Of a stretch of 33,871 bases of DNA, positions 1 through 31,497 are shown piece after piece. The notes below the pieces were generated by a model that was given only the letters and a program-made list of their open reading frames with translations, ran no database searches and was not told where the DNA came from. The first letter of the stretch is position 1, and each line of letters begins with the position of its first letter. Source of the DNA: Folioceros fuciformis (Eukaryota); NCBI GenBank assembly GCA_049999805.1, contig JBNGIO010005255.1, positions 1-33,871 on the forward strand, written 5' to 3'. The translations under genes and the position numbers were made by a program.

Positions 1-88
1 GGGGTCGTCTGGTGGGAGAAGTAAGGGGGCTTGGTAAGGTCCGAGCACTGGACGTGTGTGTGTGGGTCAGTCAAGCTTTAGGTGTTAA

Positions 89-672
89 TTGACTTTAGAA
101 GCTAACCTGTGTAGTTTAACACAAATCATTCCCTTGGGATCGAATCCCAGAGCTACAACGACATAGAGGGCTTGTATGGACCTCGCGCTACCTCCGGGTA
201 CCATATTTTAACCCCACAGTAAGGAGCATGGAATAAGCTACTGGTAGTTGAAAGACAACAGAGGTAGCCGAAGCGGCTACTGGTAGTTGAAAGACGACGG
301 AGGTAGCCAAAGCGGCTACCGATAGTTGAGACCCTACCTCGGTAGTTGAAGGGTCGGTAGGTTTAGAGACCCCCCCCCCCCCGGTAGCCGAGTGAGTCAA
401 TAGGGTAGCCCAGGGTCGAGGTAGTCGAGTGGGGCCTAGAGTTATAGAGTAGGGACTGTGGTAGCTAGGCTAGCTGAGGGGTAGGGGTAGTTGAACCAGT
501 AGGTAGTGGAGTGGGGTAGTTAAAGTCTGACCTAGGTAGTAACTGACTTTTAGAAGAAACCTGTGTTACTTGGCACAAATCATTCCCTTGGGATCGAATC
601 CAAGTGCTATAATGACAAAGAGGGTTTGTGTGGTCCTCGCAACACCCCCGGGTGCAATATTTTCCCCCACAG
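89..672 (+). repeat. Diverged ~130-bp direct duplication (about 89-219 and 543-672)
   Basis: Both copies contain gacttt..agaag..aacctgtgt...cacaaatcattcccttgggatcgaatcc and end in ...ccccacag. Confidence 0.8.
237..330 (+). repeat. 39-bp tandem repeat, ~2.4 copies
   Basis: gctactggtagttgaaagacaacagaggtagccgaagcg at 237, a near-identical copy at 276 and a partial copy at 315. Confidence 0.85.
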
Positions 673-3600
673 GTACTCAGAGGAGGAAGGTTCAAATGAT
701 GAAAGCGCCATGGGTGCAAAAGAGGGAGATTCTTTGCAGATTCCAACCATTGCTTACAATCCGACAAAGACTGTGACGAGACCTGCTCAAGTGAGTGAAC
801 CTAGGAGTAGGTCAAAGGAGCTTGAATCTCCCCAGGTGGAGTGGTTTATACCTGGATTCGAATGCTAGCATGTAGGAGAAGATCAAAGAACAGCTGCTGA
901 GGAGACACAGCAGGATACAATCACCGGGCGATGACATCCCGAAACGGTTGAAGCAATGCGGGTGTAGCACACCATGTGGCCTGCACACCACCGGCACCTT
1001 CACGCAATCGAGCAGGAAATGGTGGTGGTCATCAGGTGGAGGAGCAAGGAGTTCGATCCTAGCCAGCGGAGTTCTTTGGAGGATGCCGGCATGTCGGTGT
1101 CTTGGGAGAACCCTCTGTCGGTGATGGCGGGCGTAAACATGTAGGAATTCATTGCCGGTAGGAGGTAGAGGCAACAGGGCGCCGACATGGTGGAGGAAGA
1201 CCCAGTGGGGTGCCAGCATGCAGGCGCCTGCCTAGTGGAGGGCGAAAGTAGAGCCAGAGGGTGCCCACATGTTGGTACTAATAGTGGTGCACGGGAGAAA
1301 AAAAGGTGCCGGCATGCCCGCTCCCTTTGAGAAGATGTTTGTGTCGATAAGGCAGGTGACATGGAAGAACCATATGCTAATGAGGAAGAAGACGAGGGCA
1401 TGCAGCGAAAAAAGCGTAGGAAGCCTTTACGGTTGAGGGAATAGAATCTAGAGATAGAAGATCATGTGAGCTTAGACTTTGACAGCAATATGGGAAGGAA
1501 CAGAGGAAGGCATGTGCACCGGGCGTTGGACAACAATGACATACCGACTTTGTATATTGCAACAGATGGGGAGCGGCTTGAAGGCTTGTATAGAGATGAA
1601 GTCATTCTGAGCAAGTTGTGGAAGTCTGCCTATGAGAAGAAAGTTCAAGCTGAAACTGTGTTGGTAAAACTGGAGAACCTCCGCCCGGCTTCGTTCCTAA
1701 CCCCTGATGTGCAGATTCGAACAGTGGATGAGGCTTGGAGTAATTACTTGGCAAGGGTTATTGCTAAGGGCAGAGTGGAGGAAGGAGTTCTTCCGTTGTT
1801 GTGTATGATATATCCAGCTGAATGCAATGATAAGAAAAAGCTGGATTGGGATAGATTCCGTGCGAAGAAGTATACTATGGGAGTTCTCGGCGGCAATCAT
1901 ACTTATGCGGCAATGAAGCATCTTGCTGATATTTCACTAGGGAAGACTAAGTACCAATGGCTTGAGGCACATGTATATTGCGGGCTGTCATTGCAGGAAA
2001 TGAGAGAACTAGCAATAGATCATAACACGATGTCGGACAAATGAAAGAAGATGAGTTTTATTGAGCAAGTGCGCTACTTGCGGGATGAACTACAGATCGC
2101 CAAACGCGACGGCGTGAACATGAATATGCAATGGAATTTTAATTTGTATAAGGATCTAGGCTTGATTGAAGATGATGCCGGGCGTGAGGACGAGCAATAC
2201 AAGCAAAATAAAGTCGACAACCGGACTCACATTCTCTACATAGCAAAGATGGAGGGGAGAGTTTGGGAAAATGTGGATAAAATCTTCAAAAAATGGGAGG
2301 CTCTAGAGTTACCTAAATAGGCCTAACATGTTGCAGCAGGAACAAGCAAGAAGACCAAAGGCAAGCGGAAGGTGCAGGTAAAAGCCCAGGTGATTGATAA
2401 GCATTTTCTCAAACCAAAGGAGATGCAAGGAAAACCTTGGCGAAGCTTTCAAGGTGTTCCACCTGGTGAATTTGGGCAATAGATGCTTGTTACTGTGACA
2501 GAAAAGGTGCTAACTAGCTTGTTGGACTTGAATGGGATGGCGAACAAAATTATGCTTCGGAAGAAATTACTTGTCATCCAGGTCGCGATGGCAAAACACC
2601 TTGGTTGCACCTCATTTGAGATGGTCCGCAAAGAGTATCCGATGCACTCCACCAACGAGGTCATTGCAAGATTCCAAACGGCATTTGAGGGGAAGGTACG
2701 TAGTTTGATGATATCACTTTGCATGATGCACTTCTAGTATGCTAACCCAATATGATGTTTTGAGTTTTAAATAAGGCAGTAGGCGACGGATGTGGAGGAT
2801 TTGAAGAAGTTGCCTAAAGACTTCCAATCTTTTATCCTAGAAGTGCACAATTGGAAAGGATTAGAGGATGAGCAGCGAGCGATGGCAGATTTGGACATGG
2901 AGGAGGGTTTGCAGTCATTCACGGTGCCCATGGCGGAAACAACCGTGCATTACCAAGTGGTGGGAAGGGATGCAGCTAACATGAGAGGGTTCTTGCGGGC
3001 AAGGAAATACACGACACTCATAATGGATTTGCCCCGAGGTTTCAACAAGGGTGTGTGGAACGTGCGCATGGACTAGTCTTAGCTGGCAACTATCTTACAA
3101 TCATTTCATGATATGACTACATGTGATGAACTTCGTATGATAATTATGCACGGGGTTGAGGAGTTGCAAATGGTGCGAGAATCACATCGCAAGTGGTGCA
3201 TAGCAGGTGGATTGGTATCTTTTATTTGGGACAAAACTAATATGCACAACGATTAGGGGGGTTTTAACACAGTCGAGAACATTATTGTGAGATGGGGTGC
3301 TACTGCGAGTAGCAAAAAGATCCGAGTGTCTATGCTGCCTAACACTTTGCAAGGGTCTTTCAACAATGGTTAGGCTGTAATTTCAATGATACTGTTGTGA
3401 AGAAGCTTCTATATATGTCCTTGGACAAGCTGGTGGTCTATGTAGGGTTAGAGACCTGTGGGTCCCATGACGAAATTGATCACCAGTTTCTCGAATGAGG
3501 GCGATTGGATAATAGACACATGTGCAAGTAGTGGGTCCTACACACTGGCGGCTCTTCTTTGTGAAAGAAACTGTATTGCCATAGATGTCTACAAGCGGTG

Positions 3601-3934
3601 CACGGAATTCATCCCCTAGAGAATTCATGGGTAGGAGGTTCTACCGAATGTAGTAGAGGAGTTGAATCACGAACCCCACCAGTGAGGTCCTAGTCAATTT
3701 TGGGCAAAGGAGCTGAGTTTGTCTGAGCGAACTACGACATAGGCATAGGTGGTTCTACTAGGGTTTCAGCGGATGAGAATAAGGACAGGAGACATGTTGG
3801 CCCCGGGTCAGCAGACTCTCCAAACATCATGGAAGCTTCAAACGACGGGTGGCGATGCCATGACCATGCTCGAAGTGGATGCCATGGAAGACAATGACAC
3901 CTTTGAAGAACCTATGGATGGTCACCTTATGTAG
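673..3934 (+). pseudogene. Degenerate ParB/Srx-like domain + beta-class N4-cytosine/N6-adenine DNA methyltransferase fusion gene, probably transposon-borne
   Basis: ORFs 563, 1466, 2051, 2483, 2792 and 3749 are all in frame +2, separated mostly by TAG/TGA/TAA stops. ParB-like motifs: QIRTVD, VLGGNH (GGNH 1889-1900), VYCGLS, LAIDHN. MTase motifs: LIMDLPRG..GVW (DLPRG 3026-3040, at the DPPY/motif IV position), FIWDK (WDK 3227-3235), and *RPVGPMTKLITSFSNEGDWIIDTCASSGSYTLAALLCERNCIAID (from 3449; QKP plus motif I pattern of the N6_N4_Mtase family). Probable GT-AG intron 2696-2779/2782. Start is uncertain. Confidence 0.75.
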
Positions 3935-6350
3935 ATTTGGTGTTAGATAGTGCGTCTGGGCAATGTCTCCCTATTTCCGAGTGGCAAGGAGAGGAAAATA
4001 TGCTGCAAGAGGAGTCGGAAGAGTAGGGTGTGTGTGGGCGTTGGCATGCCGGCGCCCTCGATTGTGATTTCCGTGAACATGAAGGGTAGTACAATTAAGT
4101 CATGTACCAGATGACATTTCATATATGTAGTTTAGTTGCGAACATAAGGCCACACATACCCTTCTTGTTGAGGGCTTTGAACAGAAAAGGTGTTCATATG
4201 AACAAGGGGACTGTACCATGCACTTGATAGTTCACGAAATATTGTTGAAGTCGTTGTCGGGGGTTCAAGTCTACTTTGTTATAGGTGGATAGGAAAAAAC
4301 GAAAGGGTCATTGAATAATCCGATCCTTCAAAAATTATGGTGCTAGTAAGCATCATGTAAGGTCAAGGGGTCTCCCTCTTCTACAACAATGCTTAAGGCA
4401 AAGATATCATCCACAATACCAACATAGGTTAATCTAGCTTGATTAAATTCAATGTCAAATGGTGGTTCCTTCTAGAGATGCCTAGGTTGTCTCTCGCATA
4501 TAGGTAATCTATGCTCAAGAGTAGGCACAAATCCAGTAGGGGATGGAGGGATGATAGGCGCCGAAGGGAAGTCATGGGGCACCATCAAATATAGATCAGC
4601 ATGTTTAAGGGCATCTAGATCAATTGATGGGTAATCTGACGTTACCACAGGGTCTACCTCCACTTCCCCCTCTTGAGTAGGAACAAGGTGCACCAGAGCT
4701 GGTTGCAAAGGTGAAGCAAGAGAAACAATCCGTGGCAATGAATCTACTTGAGGAAGAGGAGCTACGGGAGGCACAAGAATACCAGCAGTAGGAAAAGTAG
4801 AGGGCTAAACAATGGGATCAAAGGAAATATCACTAGATGAGCGCGGAATGCTCGTGGCTAGGACATCATGAGGACACGCCATGGACGTCGCAATTGCAAG
4901 CACTATCTTAGCCTCATCAAAAGTGATAGCATGTGCACATATTAGAGTCCAAGTACCCATGTCTATGAGCTTGTAGGCTTTGTGATCTTCACCATAGCCC
5001 ATAAAGACCAGCTTCTAAGCATGAGTGTCAAGCTTGTCACAATGCTGGTGGGACAAGAGCATAGGCAGGGCAATCAAAACACAAAGATGTGAAATTAATG
5101 GCTTGCTCCCATGCCAACACTTGTAAGGTGTACAGCCAAAAATTGACTTGGTAAGGACCTATTCTTAATGTATACTGTAGAGGTGGTTTTTGTACGACTG
5201 GTACTTAGGGAGGAGACTAAGGAGAAGGGGTGAGGGACGAAGAGGAAACATAGTAGAAGTAGAAGCAACATAGGTGAAATAGGGGGTGAGGATGGGGGGA
5301 AGAAATGAAGGCGAAGAAGAAGGTGGAAGCGAGGAGATAGGGGAGAGGGAGAACTAAAGGATCACCCAAGTACCAAGTATCATGTGGGGTTGTCAATCCC
5401 ACAGTCGCGACTACATCACCCACAGTCGTTGTAGTAGCATTCTCGGACTCTGTCCCCATGAGTCCGATGTCATGCTAGAAGCGACTATTTACTTACCTAC
5501 TCTACTACTCAACTTAAAATACCAACTACAAGTCACTCTCAATACACACGTTTATTAAAGGCGGTGGCTAAAAACCATGAGACGCTGAAGGAGAGAAGAA
5601 TCTCCTTCCACTATACACTCCTCTAGCTGCTACATTGGCCATGAATTCCAACGGACTAGTTCTTTTCTCCAGCCAGGGATGTGGAGGCTACCAATGTTGG
5701 TTAGCAAGTACCTCTAAGGACTCCTTCCCAAGGCTTTACCCTTCTACTAACACCCACGATTGACTTTTTAGGGATGAGAACTTGTAGGGCCGTGGGCCGA
5801 CTGCTAGAAAACCCAACCTTAACCTCCTGACCACCTCCTCCCAGAGAGCGAGAGGACTCCTCCGTGGCCAAGACTCGGCGTCCTTCGAGCTACCTTTACA
5901 GCTACCTAATGACACACCTACAGCACCATGCAAGATGCTTACTCCTATCTAAATTCACACCACATCTAGCACACTAATTTTAGAATCTCAGCGTGCGGGA
6001 AGGCTGCTCCTCCTCTCATTTCAGCTGAGGGATTGGAAGCCTCTCTCGGAAAATCCTGCCACCAGATCTTCTGAGATATTAGTCTCGATGGCTGCCTACA
6101 CATCGATACCCGATGGAAGTTAATGCCTGCCCTAGCCCGTGCGCTATGGCTGTGCCAGGCCTTACGGTGCCATTTCGTTTTGCCCAATGACACGGCCTTA
6201 CTAGTTCTCATCCTTCGTCCCGTGAGTTGAATGCGGTCTTGCAGTGTGCAATCACGCGATGGTAAACCATGCGTGCATGAACCATGCTTGGATCACGCGA
6301 TAATAAACCATGCGCTTATCAGCCTGTAGAATTTCCCGGTTACGATGAAC

Positions 6351-9300
6351 TTAATGTGTTGAGAGTGGAAGGAACACTGATGGAACGCTAGCTTTGAGAG
6401 CACGTTCATCTTTTGTCTCGCTATTTCCTCTAGAAGAGTTGATTGCTTGTCTATCATACCTCGATGAAAAGCTTACAACAAGACGGACAAGCCGATGTAA
6501 AGCACGCTCGGTTTCAATGAAAGGTGACAGAGATATGAGCAAAGGAAGCCTTTGAAAGGCATGCCAACTATTTCTCTGCTTGCTTTGTCCAGATGAGTCA
6601 AATGATTTCTTATCATACTTCAATGAAAAGATTACAACAAGACGGACAAGCCGGTATAAAGCACGCTAGGTTTCGATGAAAGAAGACGGAGATATGAGCG
6701 AAAGACGCCTTTGAAAGGCATGTCATCTTTTTGTCTACCCGCTTTCTCCAGATGAGTCAAATGCTTTATTATCAGTCTTCGATGGAAAGATTACAACATG
6801 ATGGACACGTCGGTGTGCAGCATGCCTGGTTTCAATCAAAGATGAAGGAGATATGAACCGAAGAAGCTTTTGAAAGGCAGTTCACATTTTGTCTACCCAC
6901 TGTTTCCGGAAGAGTCAAATGCTCCCCTATCATACATCGATGAGATGGACAAGCAGGTATGCAGGCTACTTGGCTTCGATCAAGGACAACAGAGCTACTA
7001 CAGAAAGCTGCCTTTGAAACAATAGTCACAGGTTCCAAGTCACTACTTTTTTCTTCTTCCTTGGTACTTCATCAAACCCGCTCAACCGTTGCAAACTATT
7101 TGAACCTTCATTCACAGGCAGCTCTTGTAATGGCATTTGTGACCAAGGTCTCTCTCTCTACTGAGCTGTAAGTATCCGAATTTGATTTAAGGTTTGTTCC
7201 ATGATAGCAGCAATATCAAAACACAGATCCTTGTGATGGAAAGCAACCTTACAAATCTCCCTACATCCTGCTTCAATTGTGTCCATCCTTCGCTGCTGAG
7301 TTTGCTGGAAATGTGAGGTCTTTGCACTTGTTGCCACCAAACTGTTGTTAAGAATGACAAGTTTTGGGTTTTCCTAGTCCTGTAGCCAATATGACATTGC
7401 TAAAGTAGACGTTGCTGCCCCATCAGAGCAATATGCAGCAGGATTGGGCGTACACTCCTTCACACACTCCTTCACATGTGCAGTTCCATCTTTGTAGACA
7501 ACAAGTAATTGCTGAACCTTAATAATATGCTTGCGTATGAACCCTTTCAGGCCCATAGGGCATGTGCACGTTGCCCATGGTGAATCTGCATGATCTATAA
7601 CATACCAAGTAGACTCAATGGAGGAAGACATGCAGTGAGTCAGCCCAAGCAATCTTCCTACTGTAGGGCATGGTAGAATTACTGAGTTCAGTGGAATCTC
7701 CTGAGCTTGTAGAACCGCATGCCCCATCAGAAAATCTTGTTTCTTATTTCGAGCATAGCCTCCTTCTTTAGTGAGGTGTTGGTACTAATAATGTCGTGCT
7801 ATCACAAAAACCAGCTGGTATAGTAACCAATCCAATTTGCGTGCAGGCAGAGTAGCTTTGGAAAAAGATACATGTTCTTTCAAGAAGCGGTGAAATGCTT
7901 CCACTGCCGAAGTTGTATTCTGCCCGGCATGAGAGAACAGCCGAGCATTACAGATCCACATTTCTGCATAACAATCATTCACTTGTCAGGGGTTCACCTA
8001 AAGGTAACATGAGCAAAAACATGAAGTGCGTAGAAAATGAACTAACCCATTATGGAATCCCATTGAGCTTTGAAATACGAAACGTAAGCAGGTTGTTTGA
8101 CCTCCCACTTGGCATAGAATGCAGATAGCATAGACCTTGCAGTGCTCAAACAAATGGCTGCTGTGGTTGCACCTTGGACATACATAATTCTACCTAGTTC
8201 TGCCCAAATTGCTTTCCGGTCATCCATGTCACGTACCTTGCTTAGCAGTTGACGTCGTCAAGCTTTACGAACATGCCACTAACACAATATGATTGGCATG
8301 TTATGTGACCAAACCTGTTGGATAGCTGTTATCTCAGCTTGGCAATCATCCACGATGAAGGAGCTCGGAATCCATGCACGGTCACGTTTGAATACCTGCA
8401 ACTGGACAGTAGAAAGCCATGGAACCAAAGAGGCAATTGTTGCCTCCTTGGAAATCAACTAAGCAACAAGTACTCCGTTAAAATGAGGGTCAAACACCAT
8501 CAAAGTGAACAAATTGTACTTGTACTTGTTCATGCCGAATGTGGCATCCATAGCTAAAACACTATTATTTCCATATTGTACGATAGCCTCCAACATGAAT
8601 GGGGTTTGAATTCCCAAGCAGAATGGTTTGTCATCAGGTGCCAAGTAAAATACAGAAGACGCATTTTGCGCAAGCCACATGGATACAGAGGTGCAATCAT
8701 CAACATGAAGCTTGTATTTACCTATATCCAATTGAGTAGCAATGTTCAAAACATCTTGTCGTAACATGTAGTCATCTCTAACGTGTTCGTATGGCTTTGC
8801 TGAATTATTTACCTTCATGAACACAGCATCCTTGTGTCAACGCATAATTTCATCGACGGACACCTTGCGGTACAAGCAGTGGTGGACCCACTCCTTCTTC
8901 TCATGAGAAAGCCAGGCTGCTTGAACATCTCGAGGCAAGCCTATGTAAGCGGAACCATGACAAATAGTAGCCCCAAAATCAATATGATTATCTTCATACA
9001 AGCCAATCTCGGCAACCATGGGCCACAACAATAATTGCTTTACACGAAAGTTAGCTTGACATCCGTGCTTCACACTCTCTCCTCTCACAATTTTGCACTT
9101 CGCTGTTTGAACACTTAAGAGGCCTTGAGGACTAGATTGCCGAAAATCCTCGGGCTCATATGAACACCAATACCTGCCAAAACGTTCAGAACGTACAATC
9201 AGTTCCTCACATGGCAGTATAATTAAGGCTACCCTAAATCCCACAAGTCACTGTCCTGTTTAGTGAGTGCCACATGTAAGATGAAGTGAAGAATAGCAGT

Positions 9301-9620
9301 TACAGTCAACGGAAAAAAATCAGGATGGTACCTTGTGTAGAAAAGGGTTGTGTGGACAAATGGTGTTATAGGTTTCAAGAGCTTGTTGGGTCCTTTTGAA
9401 TCCCTTATACAAATTTGTTGGATGTTCTTTGTTTGCGCTCATACCAGCTACAAAGTCCACCACTCTGTCCATCAAGATGTGAGCAATACGAATCATCCGC
9501 TGATGCCCATGTGCCCATTTTGAATGGCTCTAAGAGGAGCACATCCACTCCAAATCTGCAGCTGAGAAGTGTCCAGGTTTAGGCAATTGCACCACGAATG
9601 GTGTATCCCGGGGCTGCTCC
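6351..9620 (-). pseudogene. MULE DDE transposase with SWIM zinc finger, disabled
   Basis: YWCSY..KHGCQANF, LAMDATFGMNKYKYNLFTLMVFD, FIVDD, ILC*WHV, NTTSAVEAFH, and SWIM-like ATCTC..(C>R)KH. Probable introns at ~9330-9176 and ~8046-7998. Several in-frame stops and a frameshift near 8830. Ends are approximate. Confidence 0.85.
6380..7020 (-). repeat. 159-bp tandem repeat (~4 diverged copies) inside the MULE
   Basis: The motif tacaaca..a.ggaca recurs at 6474, 6633 and 6792; gatgagtcaa recurs at 6592 and 6751. Confidence 0.85.
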
Positions 9621-12600
9621 TCAAAATTTTTGCACTTGATACGATCTATGTACACTAAGCTCAATCAAAGCTGCCCTTGACAAGTAAGATCATCGACCTA
9701 ATCTAAACCCTTTTGATAGGGTAAGCAAAAACTTTGAAAATAGCAGACGTGAATTTGGGCAATCGCTTGAATGAACATTAGGGTTAATGGTGGTAGCCAC
9801 GAAGCTAGGTATTGTAAGCGTAATTGGCGCATGGTTTACTATCGCTTGATGCCCGCACCGCTACATCGCGCGGAATAGCCTGTTGGTGTACACAACGGGT
9901 TTAGCTCACGGAAGGAGGATGAGAACTGGTAAGGCTGCGTCGTTGGGCGAAACGGAATGGCTTTTGGCACCAGCCGTAAGGCCTGGCACAACCGTACAGC
10001 ACGGGCTGTGGCAGGCATTAACTTCCATCGGGTATCGATGTGTAGGCTCGATGGCTCACCCTGCCACCCCTCGAGCCGGGACAGGCCACCTTCGGGGCCT
10101 ATTCCAAAACTATCCCAGATGCCCGTTACCAAGGCCCGTCGCCCACTGGCCCCACAACAGCCTGAATCGCGAGTTCTCAAACGCCACGGCTGTCACATTG
10201 GCGTCGGTGGTATTGCCTCCGCTGGACACCAGCTCGCCGCCGACATCCATCCACCAACCCCTCGTTAACCGCCTGCAGCACCGTCGGCTTCGCAGCGGCG
10301 AGTGGAAGCACGCCAGCCGACACGGACAGGGACACGCACGCAGACAGGCGCCGCGGCGTCACCAACAGCAGCGGCTTGGAGCGATGTACGCGAGCTCGGA
10401 TCTGCAGTTGCCGGGACTTGAGAATCCCACGATCCCACTTGCTGGTCGCCGGGATCCCAGTCGGACCAGCGCAGAATCCTTGGTCAGTCTCGCACAACTC
10501 CGCATAGTCGGCACAAATGTCCCGGCCCCGTAGCTGAAATTCAAGCTTCATCTTCTAATTCCGTGCAGACCAGTTGAGTCCTCAGCAGAGCCGGGCCCAT
10601 CCAGGACCCTGAATTTGGATCGGAGATCCTTTCCCGAAGCAAATGTCCGGTAAGGCCGTACTCCCGAGGATCAAGGTGGGAGCTGAGTTGTTCCGAATCC
10701 GTCAACAGCAGCACAACCTGGGCGAGAGCTTCTCGTCGGTGGGGGCCATGTCCCTCGATTCCCTCCTTGTGGCACATTCCACACCATCTTGCTGATTTGA
10801 GTGTCACCCAACCGGGTTACCCTGGATCCCCAACACACCGAGACTCAAACCGCAGTCCTCCTGCGAGTTGCTCCTCCACCTCCCAGAAGCCTCGCACCAG
10901 CAGCCTCTGCTCGTGCTCCCACAAGCTCAGCCCCTCACTTCAACTCTGGCTGATCCAAAATCCGGCACTACTCGACAACGACACCTTCCAAAACACTCGT
11001 TGTCCGAGCTCCGACATCGGCCCGAGGTGGTGCAAGAATGCTCGCCGCGACACCACTCTTCCTGCTTGGAATCCCTGTTGCTGGACCCACCTGAAGAAAT
11101 TCAGCGCCACACTGGCATCTCTCCGCCTCTTCGAAATGATCCTCACTTGTGGAGCAGAGGATTGCACACGAGGCTGGTTTCGAGACTCCACAGTCGCCGG
11201 TCCCCGATGTTTCCTCAAGATGTCGCCGGTCCAGCCAAGATGAGCCAGCTTCAAATGCGTGCGGGTACCGAATGGGAACAAGCTCCCATCCAGACACCGG
11301 AATTCCTCAGCCAGCAATTGCTCCGCCTGCATGGCTTCATCTTCACCTACCGCCTCCTTCTCGGCTACCAGCAAAATGAGCTGTTGGTTCTTGTAAAGCA
11401 ATGGGTCGATGCCGCTAATCTCTCCTCTCAGTAGATCCCATCCCAGCGCAATCGCATCGGCTTGAGCCAGTAGGCTCCCTCATGGCATCGCTGGAACTGT
11501 CAATCCAGCTGTACAGTAGGCAGCTTTCCGAGCACCGTCGTGTTGGTGATGGGCCTCGGCAGCAGCCTCCCGGCTGCGAATCGGGACCTGGCAATCCGCG
11601 GAGGGAACCTGTAAGGGTTCTGCAAGCTGGGAAGGCCGCGGTTTCGCAGGAGGGTCCTCCTGCCGTGGTCACTGTCCACCGTGAAGCCCCGGCTGCGGAT
11701 GTCGCTCTTGGTATGGCCGTGGCTGCGGCTGTGGCTGCGTGGAGAGGTAGAGTGCCGGCTTCGGCCGCTGCTGCTGACGCTAGGTCCACGAGTGCGGGCC
11801 ATGTCCTCCTGGGAGGAGGCCTTGCTGTTCATAATCATTGTGATCCTGGTCCTAGGCTTGGCCGCCTCCTTGGAATCTGTCTTGATTGAGTGCAAGAGGA
11901 AATCCGGGAGCCTGTGAGTGGCCTTCCGGACTACAGGATTTATTGTCAGCAAATCGTGGGCGCTCAAAGCCGTCCCCGGAGCCTCGTCTCGAGATGGACC
12001 AGGATTCCGTTTTGCACTCCCGTAGCTTCTAGCATTGTAGCTCCTCAGCTAGCCCATCCCAGTTCCAAAACGACAGTGCGAAGTCCAGATCTCTCACCAC
12101 CGTCCCCAGCATCCTCTCGTAGAAATACAAATACCGGCGGTGGAAGGGCAGGAGGAGCCAGTTTTTGCGGATGCAGTAATCCGCAATGCTGTGCTCCCGT
12201 GGCTGCTTTCGTGCCTCGTACGCTAGACTTAAACCTCAGCCCGTTCCAAGTGCAAGACATCCGATGCCGACGAGAATCGTCGCTCATCGGAACGCACCCA
12301 TCCGGATCCACCCGCTCTACTCGCCGCTCAGAGTCCGCTGTCCTGAACGGACCTGAAGTCCGATTCACACTGAAGTCGGACAGATAGTCGGACCTGAGTT
12401 GTAGGCCGGTCCTCGTTCTGTCCGGAATGTTCTTGGGTTCCAGTCCGGTGGAGCTCAGCTCGTGTTTCCAAAACGAACTTGGTCCGGAGAATTACTCCGG
12501 TCCGAAAATACTTTCGGACTCCGGGAGGAATTACATCAATATCGGAATCCTGAAAATTACCTTTTCAAGTCCGTATTTTTTTTGGGATTGACATATACCA

Positions 12601-13969
12601 CAGTACACACAGCCAAAACCCACGAAGACCTCGGCAGTTAAGACAGGGTCAGGATAGCACGAGCCATGGACATCAAATTGCCATTAGTCCTTTCGGCCAC
12701 GCCATTCTGCTAAGAGGTGTAAGGCACGGTGAACTATCTCAAGATGCCATGTTCCTTGTAGAAATAACAAATCGGATGGTTGTTGAGTTCCCCGCATTGT
12801 TGAATTGAATACACCAAAGTTTATGACCAGTTGAATTGAATACACCAAAGTTTATGACCAGTCTGTAACTCAGCCATAGCAATTTAAAGGGTAAGAACAC
12901 ATTATATGAGTCACTCTTAAGACGGATTGGACACCCAAACGTATCTTTGAAGTCATCAACGACAATCATAAAATGTTAGCTTCACTTAAAAGAAGCAATA
13001 GGTAGAGAGCCACATAGATCTACATGAACTAATCAAGAGGCGATGAAGAACGACAAGCCGGAAGAGAAGGATAAGGTGAACTTCTATGTTTGGCAAGCAC
13101 ATAGGCTTCGCAGAAAGGCTGGGTCAAGGAAATCCTTGGAAGCTTATCTCTTTACAAATCTTGTTGAAAGGTGGCAAACAACCGGGCATGATTGATATGC
13201 GCAAGGTGGCAATGCCAAAGAAGAGTGTTACACGGGTATGACCTCCTTTGAGGCTGGTCTTCGAGAGAGCAGGGACCAGCAAGGAGGTAGGCACCAAAAG
13301 CACAGGCTTGCCTATGAATACATACAAGTCATGGCAGGGATGACTTCTAGCAATGATAACATAGGGTTAGAACATTGATATAATAAGCAGTCTACAGGGC
13401 TAAACTCAAGCCGAAAGGAGCCGTCCCACACAAGTTGTCGAATGGAAATGAGGTTCTTGGTCGTTTGGGACACATGTAAAATGTTAGATAGAAACATGGA
13501 GGATCCATCAACCAAGGTGAAGGCAACATATCCAATCCCTATAATCAAAAGACAAGAGTCATCTCTAAGTAGCACGAAACTCTAAGTGTCATCGATTACC
13601 TTGTACCTTGTGAACATAGTCTTGTGATTGTAGATATGCTTTGACGTAGCATAATCTATCAGCCATGAATCTCTATACTCAAAGGCCACAAGACAAATAG
13701 TGAGAGCAATCCTAGGGTGAGAAGGGTTCTTGGCCTTACATAAAATAGCCATGACGTTTGTCGTGTGAGGTTCTCACTTGGCCTCACTAGCTTGCTTTTT
13801 CCGGCACTCCTATTCCTAACATTTCTGTGTTTGACACCAGTTGCATGTCCCTTGACCCTTTGACGGCTTGGATGAGGAAGTGAGCTTGTAGGGGCACGAG
13901 GAATTGTTCGAACAGTTACTTTAATTGGAATTCTTACGTTGTAGTTGACGTCCTTTGGATACGAACAAG

Positions 13970-13979
13970 NNNNNNNNNN
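13970..13979. other. Assembly gap with a duplicated 43-bp flank
   Basis: Ten N bases; ggaattcttacgttgtagttgacgtcctttggatacgaacaag occurs at both 13927-13969 and 13980-14022. Confidence 0.9.
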
Positions 13980-14468
13980 GGAATTCTTACGTTGTAGTTG
14001 ACGTCCTTTGGATACGAACAAGGCCTATTCTCCTCCATGTTTTGAAGTCCCAACGTTGAGCTCAGTAGACTCCTCTTGAAGGCCAACGATTTTGGACACG
14101 GTAATGTTGGGCACTTAGCTCTACTTCATAGCTCGGCGAGAAGCTCTACTTCATAGCTTGGCGAGAATTTCTCCCTATTTTGAGAGGAAACAAAGGTCAA
14201 GTAGCTAGTCGGAGGCTATTGAGTAATTGAATAGCAATTTCATATTCAGCGATGGTCATCCCAAGAGCAGCAAGCTGTGCTCATACATATGGAAACTTGC
14301 TGATATGTTGAGCAACACTACATGGCCCATTTGCAAAGAATAAAATTCCAATCGTATCATACTCAACGTCATAACCTTGGTTGACTGATAGATGTTGGAA
14401 CCAAAGATGAATAAAATCAAGGAGGAATACTTATGACATTATCTAGGAAGAATACTTATCACATTGTG

Positions 14469-14970
14469 TGTAGAGGTTGCCGAGTTTGTAAAGATTGAGT
14501 AATTAGGTTGATAGAGTAATCATATGAGGTTGCAGAGTTTTATTGCAATAATACTATAAATAGCTAGCTCCACAAGGTATACCTACAATTTTGCGTATAC
14601 TATACTTGTCTTGTCCACAAATTACACCTTTCCAGATTTATTACAAGCTACATCTTTCTTACAACAACTACAGAAACTACAAACCTTTCTAAATAATAAT
14701 AAATTTTATTTATTTTTAAAAACAAGATTAAAAAAATCATCTACTCTTATAAGGGATAAATTGATTCGGACACAAAGGGCTAACCCTGGGACACTTAAGG
14801 GCTCACCCTTGGGCCCTGGGACACTTAGGGGTTTGGCCTTGGGACATCCACTAAGGGCTGACCCCCAGAAGCATGTGGACAACCAATAGTAGGTAAGGTG
14901 TGGAAACAAAAAAGAGTTTCCACGGGTCAAGGGTTTCTCCAATTTAATACATCGAACGTCCCGAGTAGAT
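14469..14970. mobile_element. Possible LTR fragment related to the 5176 element
   Basis: It starts tgtagaggttgccgagtttgtaaagattgagtaattagg, resembling tgtagaggtggtttttgtacgactggtacttagg at 5176. No TSD found. Confidence 0.3.
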
Positions 14971-15134
14971 ACATTTAGATGATATTTACCCTATATATAT
15001 AGTAATAATAATAATAATAACAACAAATTAACAATACAAGGTCGGTAGATGAAAACAACCGTGTGTGACTTATCGCTCGCCGGTAACACAGCGATCTAAT
15101 TGTGCTTTCAGTTCATCTATTTTCTCCTCTTCCG

Positions 15135-16920
15135 TCATCCTTGCTTTGAACGCCTCCCGAGGAATCCCATGAGAAAACGTTTGCTGGAAGGGTGTGGCTC
15201 ATCAATGCTGGCAGATGGACCAGATTGAAAATCAGTGGGAGCCTGCAGGACACATGTGTCAACCTCGGGGGTAAAGTAAGCAGATCCAGATCACCCACCT
15301 CTAACACGACTAGTTAGAAACAAGCTGCTACAATCCAACCACGCTGTGGAATCTCATGTGGCCAGCATGAACTGCCTTCGTTGGAAAGGTATTGGGGAAG
15401 GCTCTCTTCCTCCTCAACTTCCCTTAAGGGAATGGTTGCTTGCGTGGCATATCACACCAGACCATGCGGTCAAGATTTGAATGATAACTTACATTTCGTA
15501 CAGGTGAGGAAACAGATGTTGCAGCTGCAGGTCCATAGGCTGTTTGAGTACTAGGCTTTGACCTGCTGGCAACTGAAGGTGAAGACGCGTTGCTGGCAGA
15601 TTCGAGATCTGAGAAGAGTTGGAAAGCAAGCAAATTAATATACACCAGACCACCAAAGTGCATCATAACCATGGCCAATTGCCTCGTGGAGAGCGTGGAA
15701 AAGAAGAAGCGTACCAGATGATGATGAGACAAAAGATCCGTGATTGAAAGAGGACTGAGCTCGCACACTGCTGGAAGTGGGGGTGTGATGAAAGAAGCAG
15801 ACAAAATACAAAAGCAGTGACGCATGTGTAGAGAAATAATTGTTCCTGGGCAGCGAAGACTAAATTACCTGTTAATCGGATGTGGATGAGTGGTATCTGA
15901 TGCCAAATGCCATAGCAAAGATTTTGACCCACTTGCTCCTAATTATGAAGAAAGTGATCAAACGACCGCAAACATCACCAATTCTTAAATATCCATTCCA
16001 TTTCACGCAGTGGATAATTCTTTTGCCCCTCCAAAAATGTACCTCGATGAGACTGATCAGGTTGCACAGGACGAAGTTGCTCGGGGTTGAATGCTTGAGG
16101 AAACAGGTCTGGACTCTGTGCTCTTTCTTCTGCTACAGGGTCTGCGATAACAAAGATTGTCGTAAAGAACCTACAACAAGTTATGATTAAATCACCGAAC
16201 ATGCAGACCAGCTCATGGCAACGTCTTGCCTTTGAGAATGTAGTGGCTATAATTTCGTGGGCACGTCCTGATCAGAGACTGCTGCTTCATGCCCTCACGC
16301 TCAGAATGCTCCTGACATGAGCGCAGACGCTAGAAAGCCCAATCACTCAGTCAATAATCCTTTTTCTTAAGCCCACGACCAAGACTGGGACATCATAATG
16401 AGCATGTTCTGTACTTGAGAAAGGGAATCGCTGCGAGTCTGGATTATGGAGAGCTCGTTGTTCTCCTGGGCTAGCAGATCATTCAGCTTGTAAGCGACAG
16501 TCCCCAGGTGATCCACAGCATTTACAAGAGCCTTGATAGAATAATCTTTGAGATTTTCCAGCACCCTAAGCACGGCCCACTGGGTTACAAGCATGACTAT
16601 CAGGGCGACCCTACACACACGTGAAAGGGACTAGAACGACACTTACACTTGCTTCTGGTCACTGTAGTGATAGGAGGACTCGAAATATTCTGCAGCGGAG
16701 TACAACTGCGGACGCAGATTCTTCAGCTCCTAATGGTTCGAGGACACGTCGAAATTTCAGAAACACAGAGAAGCCACAAGGGCCTTTGAATTCAATCATT
16801 CATGAAGGACCTCACCTGCAGAGCCACGGTAAAATTTCTACTGCGCTGCATGGAGACTTCATCATAGGTAAGATGCGACTCCTCGGACGCTGCCGGTGTC
16901 GGTGGTGCACGACGCTCCAT
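15135..16920 (-). CDS. ABIL: ABI-1-like (Abl interactor-like) SCAR/WAVE complex subunit, ~9 exons
   Basis: Spliced translation: MERRAPP..TYDEVSMQRSRNFTVALQ (16920-16816) | ELKNLRPQLYSAAEYFESSY (16729-16647) | VLENLKDYSIKALVNAVDHLGTVAYKLNDLL (16565-16415) | RLRSCQEHSEREGMKQQSL..HYIL | ... SKSLLWHLASD ... | PSSKRFLMGFLGRRSKQG* (15242-15135). These match plant ABIL motifs. Confidence 0.92.
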
Positions 16921-17550
16921 GGCGGCTACCCCGTTCGGCTTCTCAGCTTAAGCTCGGACCTCAAAGTTGAGCGAGCAGAAAACTGCAGCTACACCTCTTA
17001 CGAAGAGGAAAGTTGAAGGAAAAAATAGTTTTCCTTTTCTTCACGGTCGGTGCTAGGAAAGTCGGGCCCGCCTCCGCCCGGTAGAGGGCTCGGAGCCCCT
17101 TGGAACCTTGACAAACGTAAGTAGCTACATATTCGAACAAGGTTGTGAAGCTGCCGCGGTGTGGGTGAAGAAGCTCCTGCTTCAAGAGGCAGGGCCGGTG
17201 CCGACAGCACGGTATAGATGTACATATGCCACAGGGCCAGAGTTCTCTCCATCTTGCCACGCCAGCCTGGACAGGATATCATGAATCTGTTTAAGGCAAT
17301 CGCTCTCACACGAGCTTCAGAACTCCCTGTGCCCTTTCTGGTCGACAGCAGAATTCTAACGAAAAAAACAAACAAACATTGTTCCAATCCTGCTTTAACA
17401 GCACTCAAAGTGTACAACATTTGGTCCAGCATTTCTCTGCTGTAACGTATCGTTTCAGTGGCTCTGAATTCCCCAAAACAACGGCCCAAGACAGGTACAC
17501 CAACTCTACGTGCGAACTTCCCCCGAAAAGTATCGTCGTTTAAAAAAACT

Positions 17551-20500
17551 TCACTCCGTTGCTCGAGTTAGCTCCTCTATGTAAACTTCAACATTTGCGT
17601 CATATTCTGCGGCTCGTCGCAGAAATTGCAAAGCCTCGGCCTTCGCACCTTGCTGGCATAGAACACTGCAATGAAATCTACCATATTGTGATCAACGCAG
17701 ACGATGGAAAAGTTCAACTGACCACAGGTCCAGTCTATCCAAGTTCACAGTCTAATTATGGATGCACAAAACTTCCACACAAGTGGAAAAAGGGTAGGGT
17801 GGAAATGATAAGAGGAGAGCTCGCCTGCCCAATGCCACCAATGCCTTCAAGTATCGCCGACGCACGCGTTCATCCTCGGGCACTTCAAATTTCTCCACTG
17901 CTCTCAGAGCTTGAATGGCCTCATCTATTTTTCCCTGCCCAATAGAAGATCACCAAATTCATGCCAACCTCAAACCAAATGAACTAGTAGTGCCACGTCG
18001 TCATAATACTGAATCAAAGCCACAGATGCTGGTGCGCCACATAAGTAGAGAAGTTCTAGCTCTACCTGATGGTGCAAGGCAAGCCCAATACCAAAATATG
18101 CAGAGATCAATAGCTGGTTGTCTTTAGTCTGGAACAAAAAAACCTGCGTCAGTGGACGCTAATTCCTCCAGATATAATAACGAGGCCGCCAATCCCATGT
18201 CCAAACACAGCCACACAAACAAGAATTGACAAAAATTCACCTTTGATAACACGCACGTATAAGAGCAAACAGCCTCTGCCCATTGCTGATTCTCGAACTG
18301 CAGCCTGCCAAGTGCACTGAAAGCCTCTGGACAATCTGGATACTTCTCAACGGCCCGACTGCACAAGACAAATTTACAGCCTTCAGAGGTGCGCAAAGTA
18401 GAGGCAAGCAGCACGTCACTGGACAGCGAAGCCTTATATCACATGACAAGCCTCATATCACAATGCATTGATTCCTCCATTGCTGCAGAGTCATTTCAAC
18501 TCGCATACAGTCAAGATGATGTTCCACAGTGGGACACGAAACCTTACTAGAGGAGCTGTAGTCCTACTTCCCGTTTGCCTTGCGCTACATGGTTTGCAGC
18601 ACTCTGAAGTAAATATTAGTTTGCATGGATCTCACGGGATGTGCCCATGACAACACTCAACTGAACGAGCTCTGAACTTATACACTTGTCCACAAGCAAA
18701 TGACGTAGAAATACCAAAATTATCTCATCCGAAGCTACCCCTGCCAGGCCTGCCTCCCTGTCACCAAGCAATCTTCGGTCTGGACGACGTGGCAAGCCAA
18801 GCTTTTTGCGAACAATTGGCTGCTGCAAGGCCATAGCCTACAGTAAACCAGTGCTGACATAAGCTTTAACTGTGTTAACATAAACTTATGTGCCCACGAC
18901 ATTGGTTGGCATGAACACATCTATGTAAAGGTTCCATAAATCCTCTGCCAAACAATCGATGACCGGACATCACAAATCTGCAAAACAAGCATGGAAAGAC
19001 TGCAACATTTTAAACCAACTCTGAAACTACCTGGACTAGACTGCAAATGTTGTTTGGGAGCCAGTACATGAATACTCCCTGCAGTGCCACTAAGCTGGTC
19101 AATATCAGCGAAACTAAACTCCGTGAAGATGAGCCTTCTAAGCGGGCCACGCAAGAGTGTGCACACTTATTCTTGACCTGTGGCAGGTAGAAAGCGATGA
19201 GCATTGTGGGTATTGTGGCAGCCTCCAGGCCCCACTTGTAGAACTGAACCATGCACACTCAGCTCTTAGAAGGCAATGGAGGTAGCCAACGAATATGTGA
19301 GACGGCCTGACAGCTGATTACAGCTAACTTTAGGGACCAAAGAAACGGAAACTTTCATCTAGACGCTGAAAAAAGTTCAGAAAGCACCTTCATGAAGGTC
19401 GCCATTCCTCCTGTCTGTTCTTCAACGCCTCTCAATGACACCTACATTTCTAAAGCCCAGCACACCCAAACAAGAAACCAAGCACCCTTGTGCTTTTCGT
19501 CATAAACCGGCAGAAGTAGAGTGCGGACGCATGAAAAGTGCAAACAGTCTGCCTTACCTGCAGATTGATGAAGTACGTCCAGGCCACCATGAGAGGGAAA
19601 AGAGCCCCAACAAAACCTTGACCAGGCACAGAAAGATCCAGAAACCACAGCGCACCGCCCTGATAAATCATCCGCCGTGCTTGCTGGTCACTGTGGCATC
19701 CTTGCATATCTACCATGAAAACCGTCGAGGCTACTTAGCATCGATCTTGCAGAAGAAAGTTGCTAACCACGTCAAACCCTGGATGAGGGGCCAGTGCCAT
19801 CCGTCGGACTGCCAAAATCCATGATATGAATAGGGGTACCTGCTTGGAATCATGAGCCTAGCTTCAGAGATACAACAGCAGTTACGCAGCACGAGAGGAC
19901 AGCTACCAAGAATTACACTTATGGTAAGGCAGTAAGTGCGAGAAAGCATTGAACCTGCACAATAGGGACGACAATGAGCCAAGCAGGACTAGGCACACCA
20001 AGCTGTTGGCGTCTTCGCGTGAAGAGTTGATACCGCTGGACAAAACTTACGCCTGTAGGTTTGGACTTGGACAGAGGAACTGCACACCAACACGGCCAGA
20101 TGAGAGAACAAATTGAAATAATGGGATCAGAAAAAGCTGAGGTCACCGCTGTTTACAGTTTGCCCGAAGCTGCATCAACTGTGACGCTTTCCTGAGCTGG
20201 GTTACAGTGAGTGGGAAGAGCAGAGCACGCAGGGCGAGCGTTGAGCTGACGATTGTCAGCCACCTAAAACAGAGGAAGAGAGCAGTTGAGAAAGACGATC
20301 ATGACTGATGGCTCAGGCAAGAGTATAAGGGGTAGAAACGTACCAAGGCAGGCCGGTGAGCGCGTGGATTCCATCCAGAATTACCACTGCGAAGTCCACT
20401 GGAGCGTTAAGCACTGCGTACACAGCAGAGCTTGTGGAATCTCCGTCGGCCAAACAATTTGGAGTGTTGACGGCCAATGCAGCTGAGGTGGATTCAAGCT

Positions 20501-31242: not shown

Positions 31243-31497
31243 CGCACCAGCTAGAAAGGGACAATTGTGGCCCAAGGCAGGCTGGTGGCACTACGAGTCA
31301 CCAGTCCGCAGATGGACCCAGCAGCGGGGGCCTGTAGAGAAGGAGTAGCCGCAGCCGCTGCCAAAGCCGAAGAAAAGAGGAGCGGACCATCTCCGCCGTT
31401 CAGGTCCAGTCGACTGGGAACAGACAGGCAGAAGCTGAAGGGTGGAAGGAAGGAAGGAACGGGATGGGCACCGGACGGGAGCAAGGACAGCCTGCGG

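Follow-up and report, generated by a model that had tools for sequence, protein, structure and literature searches.

The stretch analysed here, hereafter the window, comprises 33,871 nucleotides of Folioceros fuciformis (GenBank assembly GCA_049999805.1, contig JBNGIO010005255.1, forward strand). Positions 1445-3700 of its plus strand hold what we consider, with good confidence, to be a pseudogene, namely a decayed copy of a gene that combined a ParB-like domain with a prokaryote-type DNA amino-methyltransferase (Pfam family PF01555); this confidence refers to the core claim just given. Frame +2 starts at 1445, directly past a stop at 1442-1444, and runs through 752 codons with 18 in-frame stops (12 TAG, four TGA and two TAA); as the other two forward frames of the same interval contain 49 and 53 stops, the +2 frame still betrays its coding past. 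An earlier note on this DNA had read the open reading frames (ORFs) of the region in one +2 frame from 1466 onwards; the frame itself was upheld by the stop counts and by the alignments given below, and its start had to be moved to 1445. The motifs cited there were all recovered at the positions claimed for them. The features of the gene copy and its immediate flanks are the following.

1085-1098, 1212-1225 and 1308-1321, no strand assigned: three imperfect copies of a palindrome of 14 bp, GCCGGCATGCCGGC, lying upstream of the ParB-like ORF
1445-2044, plus strand: stop-free ORF of 199 codons, predicted ParB/sulfiredoxin-fold N-terminal domain (ORF list, AlphaFold2, Foldseek)
1883-1900, plus strand: VLGGNH motif; a GGxH-type motif is present in many relatives
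1973-1990, plus strand: VYCGLS motif (translation)
2009-2026, plus strand: LAIDHN motif at the end of the N-terminal domain; A190 and N194 nearly invariant in alignment A2
2045-2695, plus strand: remainder of exon 1, helical middle region, with stops at 2042, 2318, 2324 and 2480 (P0082 alignment)
2696-2779, plus strand: spliceosomal intron of 84 nt, AAG/GTACGT ... GCAG/, in phase (sequence and collinear alignments)
2780-3700, plus strand: exon 2, comprising linker, beta-class amino-methyltransferase domain and acidic tail, with 11 stops
3017-3040, plus strand: motif IV variant LIMDLPRG; Asp kept, Pro replaced by Leu and the aromatic residue by Arg
3221-3235, plus strand: FIWDK (W-x-K motif); W and K invariant in alignment A4
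3272-3286, plus strand: VENII (translation)
3449-3457, plus strand: stop-R-P (TAG-AGA-CCT) at the position of the family QKP motif (alignment with relatives)
3503-3538, plus strand: motif I, the S-adenosylmethionine (SAM) loop, DWIIDTCASSGS, degenerate and containing DTCASSGS (DGCSGSGS/T in relatives)
3569-3586, plus strand: NCIAID (translation)
4040-4053, no strand assigned: fourth near-copy of GCCGGCATGCCGGC, about 350 bp beyond the end of coding homology

When 85 family proteins were compared with the whole window by tblastn, 92 high-scoring segment pairs were obtained, 91 of which share the plus strand and a single frame and fall within 1541-3673; the exception was a weak stray at 6669-6779. 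It is clear from this single frame that the copy carries no frameshift and that the window holds no second copy. The damage consists of point stops and one short missing piece. Fifteen of the 18 stops are exonic and the other three lie inside the intron; motif I reads CASSGS as against CSGSGS/T in relatives; and about 18 residues of the relatives are missing just ahead of the QKP motif, a paralogous contig likewise diverging at 3385-3466. With 15 exonic stops, a damaged SAM-binding glycine loop and these residues gone, the copy cannot make a protein; it is dead and does nothing at this locus, as the decay proposed in the earlier note had implied. The ratio of observed to expected CpG was 0.64 in the gene and 0.45-0.62 in the neighbouring genes and a nearby Mutator-like element (MULE), a likeness indicating no special decay signature.

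The intron was delimited by comparison with two relatives. In BLASTP, P0082, the closest N-terminal relative, aligned to window residues 145-416 (35% identity, E 3e-44) and ended there; beyond its aligned part it carries the segment RVMSVGNINVLPGSFQEHI, which matches the start of P0005, and P0005 in turn aligned to window residues 445-741. Between these parts lie 28 intron codons without counterpart in P0082, P0005 and most of alignment A1, with GT at 2696-2697 and AG at 2778-2779, and once the 84 nt were subtracted the distance to a conserved LP dipeptide was the same in the window and in P0082. Judged from the sequence and these alignments, the 84-nt segment is a spliceosomal intron, real in outline. 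An intron had been proposed here before, with 2782 as its end point; an in-phase GT...AG intron of 84 nt is backed by P0082 and P0005, and 2782 is an alternative acceptor AG three bases on. The proposal that the family is adapted to eukaryotes was borne out by the presence of this spliceosomal intron.

A phmmer search against 1.84 billion representative proteins gave 80 matches at E<=1e-3, 28 at E<=1e-10 and two at E<=1e-30, headed by P0002 (E 8.5e-40) and P0003 (E 1.2e-31); a word-indexed protein search with the stop-ridden translation gave no match. One of the 80, P0031 (2235 aa), proved to be an HYR-repeat protein and was removed as a false positive. Thirty matches were looked up by exact sequence, and the 17 that bear organism names are all from eukaryotes: Chara braunii (8), Adiantum nelumboides (3), Riccia sorocarpa (3), Ginkgo biloba (1) and, beyond plants, the amoebozoan Clastostelium recurvatum (1) and the annelid Owenia fusiformis (1). 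The other 13 came from Logan (9), ENA (2) and JGI/IMG (2), and within the 30 the Chara proteins formed eight separate clusters at 50% identity. The names given in the sources go at most as far as "hypothetical protein" or "DNA methylase N-4/N-6 domain-containing protein". The closest relatives of the window copy (P0002, P0082, P0005, P0006, P0007 and P0009) share 25-35% identity with it, and a search seeded with P0005 added two further relatives. P0016 was not found in metagenome contigs, and the subclade closest to the window, recognised by the motif DLPRG, had no relative in a scan of 2.9 million viral contigs. The family is widespread yet patchy in streptophytes and beyond.

The fusion of the two domains was assessed with one hidden Markov model (HMM) for the N-terminal domain and one for the methyltransferase, with which 87 family sequences were scanned. 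The N-terminal domain was found in 53, the methyltransferase in 50 and both in 20, the N-terminal domain invariably coming first. After subtraction of the window translation and of P0033, whose N-terminal match is an artefact of its own inclusion in the N-domain alignment, 18 independent fused proteins remained, so that the two parts do occur together in single ORFs among homologues, a point on which the earlier note had staked its reading. P0003 of Chara contains the whole unit of N-terminal domain and methyltransferase twice, and in the window's own subclade the fusion is seen through the overlap of P0082 with the head of P0005. The region between the domains is all-helical in the model of the full-length relative P0016, mostly at a predicted local distance difference test (pLDDT) score above 85; a Pfam scan gave neither family nor fold for it, and the best score in a language-model look-up, 0.81, was uninformative. 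The family protein is probably built of three parts: an N-terminus that is disordered at first and then folded as a ParB/sulfiredoxin domain; a helical middle; and, at the C-terminus, a DNA amino-methyltransferase of the beta class (PF01555, N6_N4). In a tree of the N-terminal domain, built from 43 rows (HMM hits covering at least 80 profile positions, P0033 excluded), the copies of Chara and those of Adiantum were each grouped into a clade with good support, and of the three Riccia rows two paired; the window copy fell among long branches and had no resolved position.

The N-terminal ORF (1445-2044) was modelled by AlphaFold2 with alignment A2 at a mean pLDDT of 77.8, with 80-96 per ten-residue block from residue 51 onwards; residues 1-46 are predicted to be disordered and residues from about 50 to 199 to be folded. 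A Foldseek search of the Protein Data Bank (PDB) with this model returned Noc (7ng0, E 4e-4), ParB with CDP (6sdk, 9.6e-4) and ParB (7bm8), and further Caulobacter and Myxococcus ParB, human and Arabidopsis sulfiredoxin (3cyi among the sulfiredoxin matches), PadC (6ryk) and KorB. E-values ranged from 4e-4 to 1e-2, with a probability of 1.00 in the top rows and no other fold among the rows listed, and a language-model look-up, which we take as a lead only, placed ParB/Srx clusters first (score 0.95). By its modelled fold only, the N-terminal domain is ParB/sulfiredoxin-like, and on that footing the ParB-like domain suggested in the earlier note held up. Canonical ParB has a CTP-binding arginine patch, GERRxR, followed by a helix-turn-helix (HTH) that reads parS. 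The VLGGNH motif presumably occupies the position of the ParB GERRxR or sulfiredoxin GCHR loop, and across the 22 aligned N-domain sequences its second glycine (G149) hardly varies; the alanine and asparagine of the LA..HN motif are taken by us to sit at the asparagine of ParB ENxxR. As the window loop reads GGNH and lacks the arginines of GERRxR, a canonical CTP clamp appears doubtful.

In the METHYLTRANSFERASE part, the Pfam scan of the window translation found only PF01555 (E 1.6e-4, 22.2 bits, residues 670-718), the match covering profile positions 166-214 only, which is the region of motif I; NCBIfam gave a weak DNA-methyltransferase match, and a phmmer search of the PDB sequences with the window translation returned only a chance match to complement C3 (E 0.8). 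The methyltransferase HMM of the family matched window residues 519-736 with E 2.7e-33, and the alignment of P0005 to residues 445-741 had E 3e-28. Eight of the 20 relatives scanned (seven of ten in one set and one of ten in the other) exceed the PF01555 cut-off: P0008 of Ginkgo (65.7 bits), P0006 (50.1), P0016 (39.9), P0025 (38.1), P0011 (33), P0005 (30), P0013 (28.8) and P0003 (27.3). On these profile scores the family is a member of PF01555, of which the decayed window copy alone falls short. The full-length relative P0016 was modelled by AlphaFold2 from a 28-sequence alignment (mean pLDDT 79.3), and its model gave 137 Foldseek matches in the PDB at E<=1e-3, led by CcrM (6pbd, 3.9e-12), M.BceJIV, M1.HpyAVI (template modelling (TM) score 0.80 on the target), M.RsrI, M.MboIIA and M.PvuII; the rotifer enzyme N4CMT (8s9o, 8s9n) was also among the matches, with TM 0.73. 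Judged on the P0016 model, the C-terminal domain of the family is a beta-class N6_N4 amino-methyltransferase with a Rossmann-like fold. The motifs of the window follow each other as IV, W-x-K, QKP and I, as they do in alignments A1 and A4, and this is the permuted order of the beta class. The earlier assignment to the N6_N4 group was therefore confirmed for the family through the relatives' scores, the P0016 fold and the motif order, and the match to Rossmann-fold amino-methyltransferases on which it had been made to depend was obtained with the family HMM and the P0016 model, the window itself staying under the cut-off.

The canonical catalytic tetrapeptide of such enzymes has the form (D/N/S)PP(Y/F/W). 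It is absent from the window and from most relatives; the majority of the latter have D-x-P-Y-G, P0025 alone has DPPYG, and DLPRG is common to the window and to P0005, P0006, P0009 and P0038, four relatives that have diverged from one another. Its presence in diverged relatives indicates, as far as the aligned sequences go, that the arginine is a conserved trait of the subclade and not a product of decay in the window copy.

ParB proteins read palindromes, and the palindrome GCCGGCATGCCGGC, with up to three mismatches, was found six times in the window against 1.01 expected, a count reached in none of 100 shuffles. Four of the six matches flank the ParB-like gene, and some of their mismatches are of the C-to-T type. 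The cluster could be a candidate binding site or a promoter element, or could have arisen by chance, the observation coming from a single locus with a GC-rich flank. The inverted pair 1305-1325 and 4036-4056 was also considered as terminal repeats and rejected, because the core is itself palindromic and its orientation is uninformative.

In intact relatives, the ParB-like module would most likely guide the enzyme to DNA, possibly with nucleotide binding, and the methyltransferase would then methylate an exocyclic amino group with SAM as the donor. The N6 of adenine would be a likelier target than the N4 of cytosine, since motif IV begins with Asp and not with Ser; the motif as it stands in the sequences argues against a simple assignment to N4-methylcytosine (4mC). 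A bolder proposal is that the intact streptophyte genes, from Chara to Ginkgo and including this lineage, might be self-marking modules, in which the ParB part would bind the palindromes beside its own gene and the methyltransferase would write N6-methyladenine (6mA) or 4mC, with DLPRG as a new variant of the (D/S)PPY catalytic motif bearing Arg in place of the base-stacking aromatic residue; we regard this as a long shot.

The remainder of the window identifies it as land-plant DNA through the exons of MAP70 and a CLASSY-like SNF2 gene, and it contains remains of several transposable elements, as listed below.

4.4-6.07 kb, minus strand: copia-like fragment, with an integrase SH3-like domain at 4907-5113
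6094-10047, transposase ORFs on the minus strand: DNA transposon of MULE type, bounded by terminal inverted repeats at 6094-6220 and 9910-10047 (85-92% complementary)
20841-26023, minus strand: CLASSY-like SNF2 helicase gene, with SNF2-related and Helicase_C domains in a 719-codon exon
28606-31290, minus strand: exons of MAP70 (microtubule-associated protein 70), supporting plant origin

The SNF2 gene has a weak SAWADEE-like stretch at about 25265-25456, and its best named relatives, with SAWADEE and SNF2, are from lycophytes, ferns and liverworts (38-44% identity). The MULE contains a 159-nt tandem array (6412-6943) and broken transposase ORFs with a ZSWIM RNaseH-like domain at 8459-8836 on the minus strand. 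DNA contigs of sequencing runs that bear the same organism label were placed on positions 1-10100 at a likeness of at least 80%; some of them join 6071 to 10047, which corresponds to a MULE-empty site in related copies of the flank, and others join 6645 to 9510 or 7109 to 9432, as internally deleted derivatives of the MULE. A single run presumed to be RNA placed no contig on the ParB-like gene, a result uninformative as to expression. Copia-type Pol beta-barrel and gag-pre-integrase domains were also seen at 13086-13665 (minus strand), and the summed depth over 4.4-5.7 kb was about 10-15 times the single-copy level.

The left end of the window (1-674) is a very high-copy repeat, with a summed contig depth of about 2,600-4,100 against about 13 over the next 670 bases. 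It consists of two direct copies of 136 nt (79-214 and 533-668, 78% identical) around a GGTAG-rich array, in which GGTAG occurs 11 times within 251-500 and 237-353 is made up of 2.4-3 repeats of a 39-nt unit; it matched neither a tRNA nor an Rfam family. Further to the right, the block 10000-12500 has a high GC content (0.59-0.60) and, on each of the two strands, long ORFs that overlap, a fragment of a tyrosinase/polyphenol-oxidase central domain lies at about 11975-12199 (minus strand), and a run of N at about 13927-14022 stands between two exact 43-nt copies (13927-13969 and 13980-14022), seemingly an assembly gap artefact. Run X3, which shares its sample with the best DNA runs, showed over 1-10100 far more C>T (498) and G>A (295) differences than expected, all listed C being converted in 4078-4274, and looks like a bisulfite- or enzyme-converted library.

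Whether the family travels on a carrier element bears on how the locus is to be read. The window begins only 1.4 kb upstream of the gene, and the right flank has been overwritten by the copia-like and MULE insertions. In run X1 the depth was about 13 at 675-1348 and 22-52 over 1349-4381 (sums over contigs, to be taken as a rough guide), and separate contigs of 85-91% identity covered 1463-1926, 2391-3009 and 3095-3642. That the family may be a passenger of mobile or selfish DNA and not a housekeeping gene is suggested by its patchy eukaryotic spread, by the many fragments seen in each genome and by analogy with algal transposon genes in print that share its architecture; as no carrier element is visible in the window, we consider this an even call. 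The transposon carrier suggested in the earlier note accordingly stays at the level of the plausible, with neither transposase nor terminal repeats found around the gene and about 2-4 copies detected.

Several observations weigh against the reading of the locus as a decayed ParB-like/PF01555 gene of a mobile family. The PF01555 match of the window (22.2 bits) lies below the curated gathering score of 26.7. No ParB_N (PF02195) match was obtained by Pfam for the window at E up to 10, nor for any of 22 N-domain sequences at E up to 1, which gave single weak matches to DUF6551 (0.034) and PF08775 (0.16), and the N-domain profile found no ParB chain among the PDB sequences but only picornavirus polymerases (E 1.8). 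The ParB call comes from a predicted fold, for which TM scores were 0.3-0.4 when referred to the query and 0.5-0.7 when referred to small targets. As to mobility, the clades of the tree fit vertical inheritance with local expansion equally well; a six-frame Pfam scan of 1-6100 (both strands) and 10048-19000 (minus strand only) showed no DNA transposase beyond that of the MULE and no virus gene; no convincing terminal inverted repeats enclose the gene; and the copy number is low, the roughly 2-4 related copies indicating that this is not a high-copy element.

Part of this evidence would also suit a decayed duplicate of a domesticated host gene family whose intact members serve plant chromatin, for instance by amino-methylation in germline or sperm as for MpDN4MT1. 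The well-supported Chara and Adiantum clades, the pairing of two of three Riccia rows, the few copies seen here, the intron and the lack of a carrier element in the scanned stretches are all compatible with it, and the recruitment of a bacterial-type amino-methyltransferase in Marchantia sperm is described in a preprint (bioRxiv 10.1101/2021.02.12.428880). We nevertheless hold it unlikely: the family is patchily distributed, with members even in an amoebozoan and an annelid, many partial proteins are predicted per genome (eight clusters in Chara), the copy sits amid retrotransposon and MULE debris, and DN4MT1, as described, has SPPY and no extra domains and would belong to another family.

A relic of an integrated large DNA virus, or of a virus-like element with a ParB-methyltransferase gene, would account for the fact that the best matches in BFVD are viral, that the top three and rank 13 span both domains, and that Pandoravirus and Megaviridae methyltransferases match the C-terminal domain. 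Such an origin is very improbable, since no other virus-like gene stands beside the copy in the scanned stretches, the closest subclade has no relative in the viral contigs, the gene carries a spliceosomal intron, and the proteins matching both domains are phage proteins at a root mean square deviation (rmsd) of 25-32 A, which are not close kin. That the sequence is a bacterial contaminant, was inserted from bacteria very recently or is a frame open by chance, as domains typical of prokaryotes and phages might suggest, is refuted: the copy is contiguous with plant genes and plant transposons in the window, it has a GT...AG intron, all 17 named relatives are eukaryotic, with E-values down to 8.5e-40, and DNA contigs of two runs with the same organism label match the locus exactly.

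Taken as a decayed ParB-like/PF01555 gene copy, the dead locus serves as a pointer to about 80 detectable relatives with a fixed architecture of ParB-like, helical and PF01555 parts, whose open reading frames are found in a stonewort, in liverworts and ferns, in Ginkgo and, outside the plants, in an amoebozoan and an annelid. The presence of 6mA and 4mC in plants is contested, and to our knowledge MpDN4MT1 is the only established plant writer of non-canonical DNA methylation. A second, architecturally different candidate writer family in land plants would offer concrete proteins for testing, and the interest therefore lies in the family and its conserved DLPRG variant, not in the locus. If true, the reading would extend to land plants the algal accessory genes thought to bind and mark their own transposon, an extension that we did not find in the full-text literature; a ParB-methyltransferase family in land plants or Chara was likewise not found there, most subscription journals lying outside its scope.

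The bacterial beta-class N6-adenine methyltransferases CcrM, M.BceJIV, M1.HpyAVI and M.RsrI are the best structural matches of the methyltransferase domain (E 3.9e-12 to 1e-9, TM on target up to 0.80) and share its motif order of IV, W-x-K, QKP and I; identity is only 15-20%, however, and the bacterial enzymes have DPPY and no ParB domain. Phage proteins resemble the family in architecture. In BFVD the best matches of the full-length relative model are viral, and the top three and rank 13 (annotated "ParB/Sulfiredoxin", from an uncultured Caudovirales phage) align over 670-705 columns and both domains, which bears out the statement of the earlier note that phage ParB-methylase fusions exist. 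In the phage proteins of this kind (H9YSJ8, A0A2D1A3U0 and A0A6J5MMM5, the last bearing the "ParB/Sulfiredoxin" name; targets of 458-507 aa) the alignments imply an N-terminal ParB/Srx domain followed by an N6_N4 methyltransferase; at 11-12% identity and an rmsd of 25-32 A the likeness is one of shared architecture, not of close kinship, and the family differs from them by its long helical middle, by a disordered stretch at the N-terminus and by an intron, and is mostly without DPPY or SPPY.

With MpDN4MT1a/b of Marchantia and N4CMT of bdelloid rotifers, eukaryotic 4mC writers that derive from bacteria, the family shares the PF01555-type beta-class fold. According to the published descriptions, MpDN4MT1 has TSPPY and, per the rotifer paper, no additional domains, and N4CMT has a chromodomain; the present family, on that description, differs from both by a D-x-P-Y-G or DLPRG motif IV and a ParB-like N-terminus. 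As motif IV (SPPY-type there) and architecture both differ, a kinship with DN4MT1 and N4CMT, for which the earlier note had proposed a joint phylogeny, is not supported by this comparison of descriptions. Other eukaryotic combinations appear in the literature. Iyer and colleagues list a Dam family of chlorophytes and chytrids that carries a ParB-type HTH as a fusion (PMC4738411). Accessory genes of red-algal Plavaka elements include PAG2 (PF01555 methylase and SET) and PAG3 (ParB-like domain and 2-oxoglutarate oxygenase), and in the Bostrychia genome PAG2 and PAG3 occur on Plavaka and other elements, tandem repeats beside PAG3 being proposed as binding sites (bioRxiv 10.1101/2025.02.11.637652). 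These are the same two building blocks, accompanied there by repeat arrays and here by 14-bp palindromes flanking the gene; in the preprint, however, the red-algal domains are on separate proteins with other partners, whereas here they are fused.

The nearest counterpart by description is found in the transposons of brown, green and red algae, whose accessory proteins combine a ParB-like domain with a DNA methyltransferase (PMC12477816). The accessory protein of Sola1-1_Ec32 of Ectocarpus, of 1104 aa, has a DNA-binding domain of the ParB-like kind together with a DNA methyltransferase predicted to be of the 4mC/6mA type, and in the authors' proposal the protein would bind and mark the element that carries it (PMC12477816). 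Given this algal precedent in print, and since the Chara and Riccia homologues are already auto-named as DNA methylase, the gene can hardly be called hidden, as it had been in the earlier note. In both systems a single eukaryotic protein unites a ParB-like domain with a DNA amino-methyltransferase of prokaryotic type. In the published account, the Sola1-1_Ec32 gene lies within a defined 21.5-kb transposon, opposite its transposase; the window copy, unlike it, is dead, has no visible carrier and is hosted by a land plant. By analogy with these elements, the locus is best classed with the ParB-plus-methyltransferase genes lately reported from mobile elements of eukaryotes, as their representative in a land plant.

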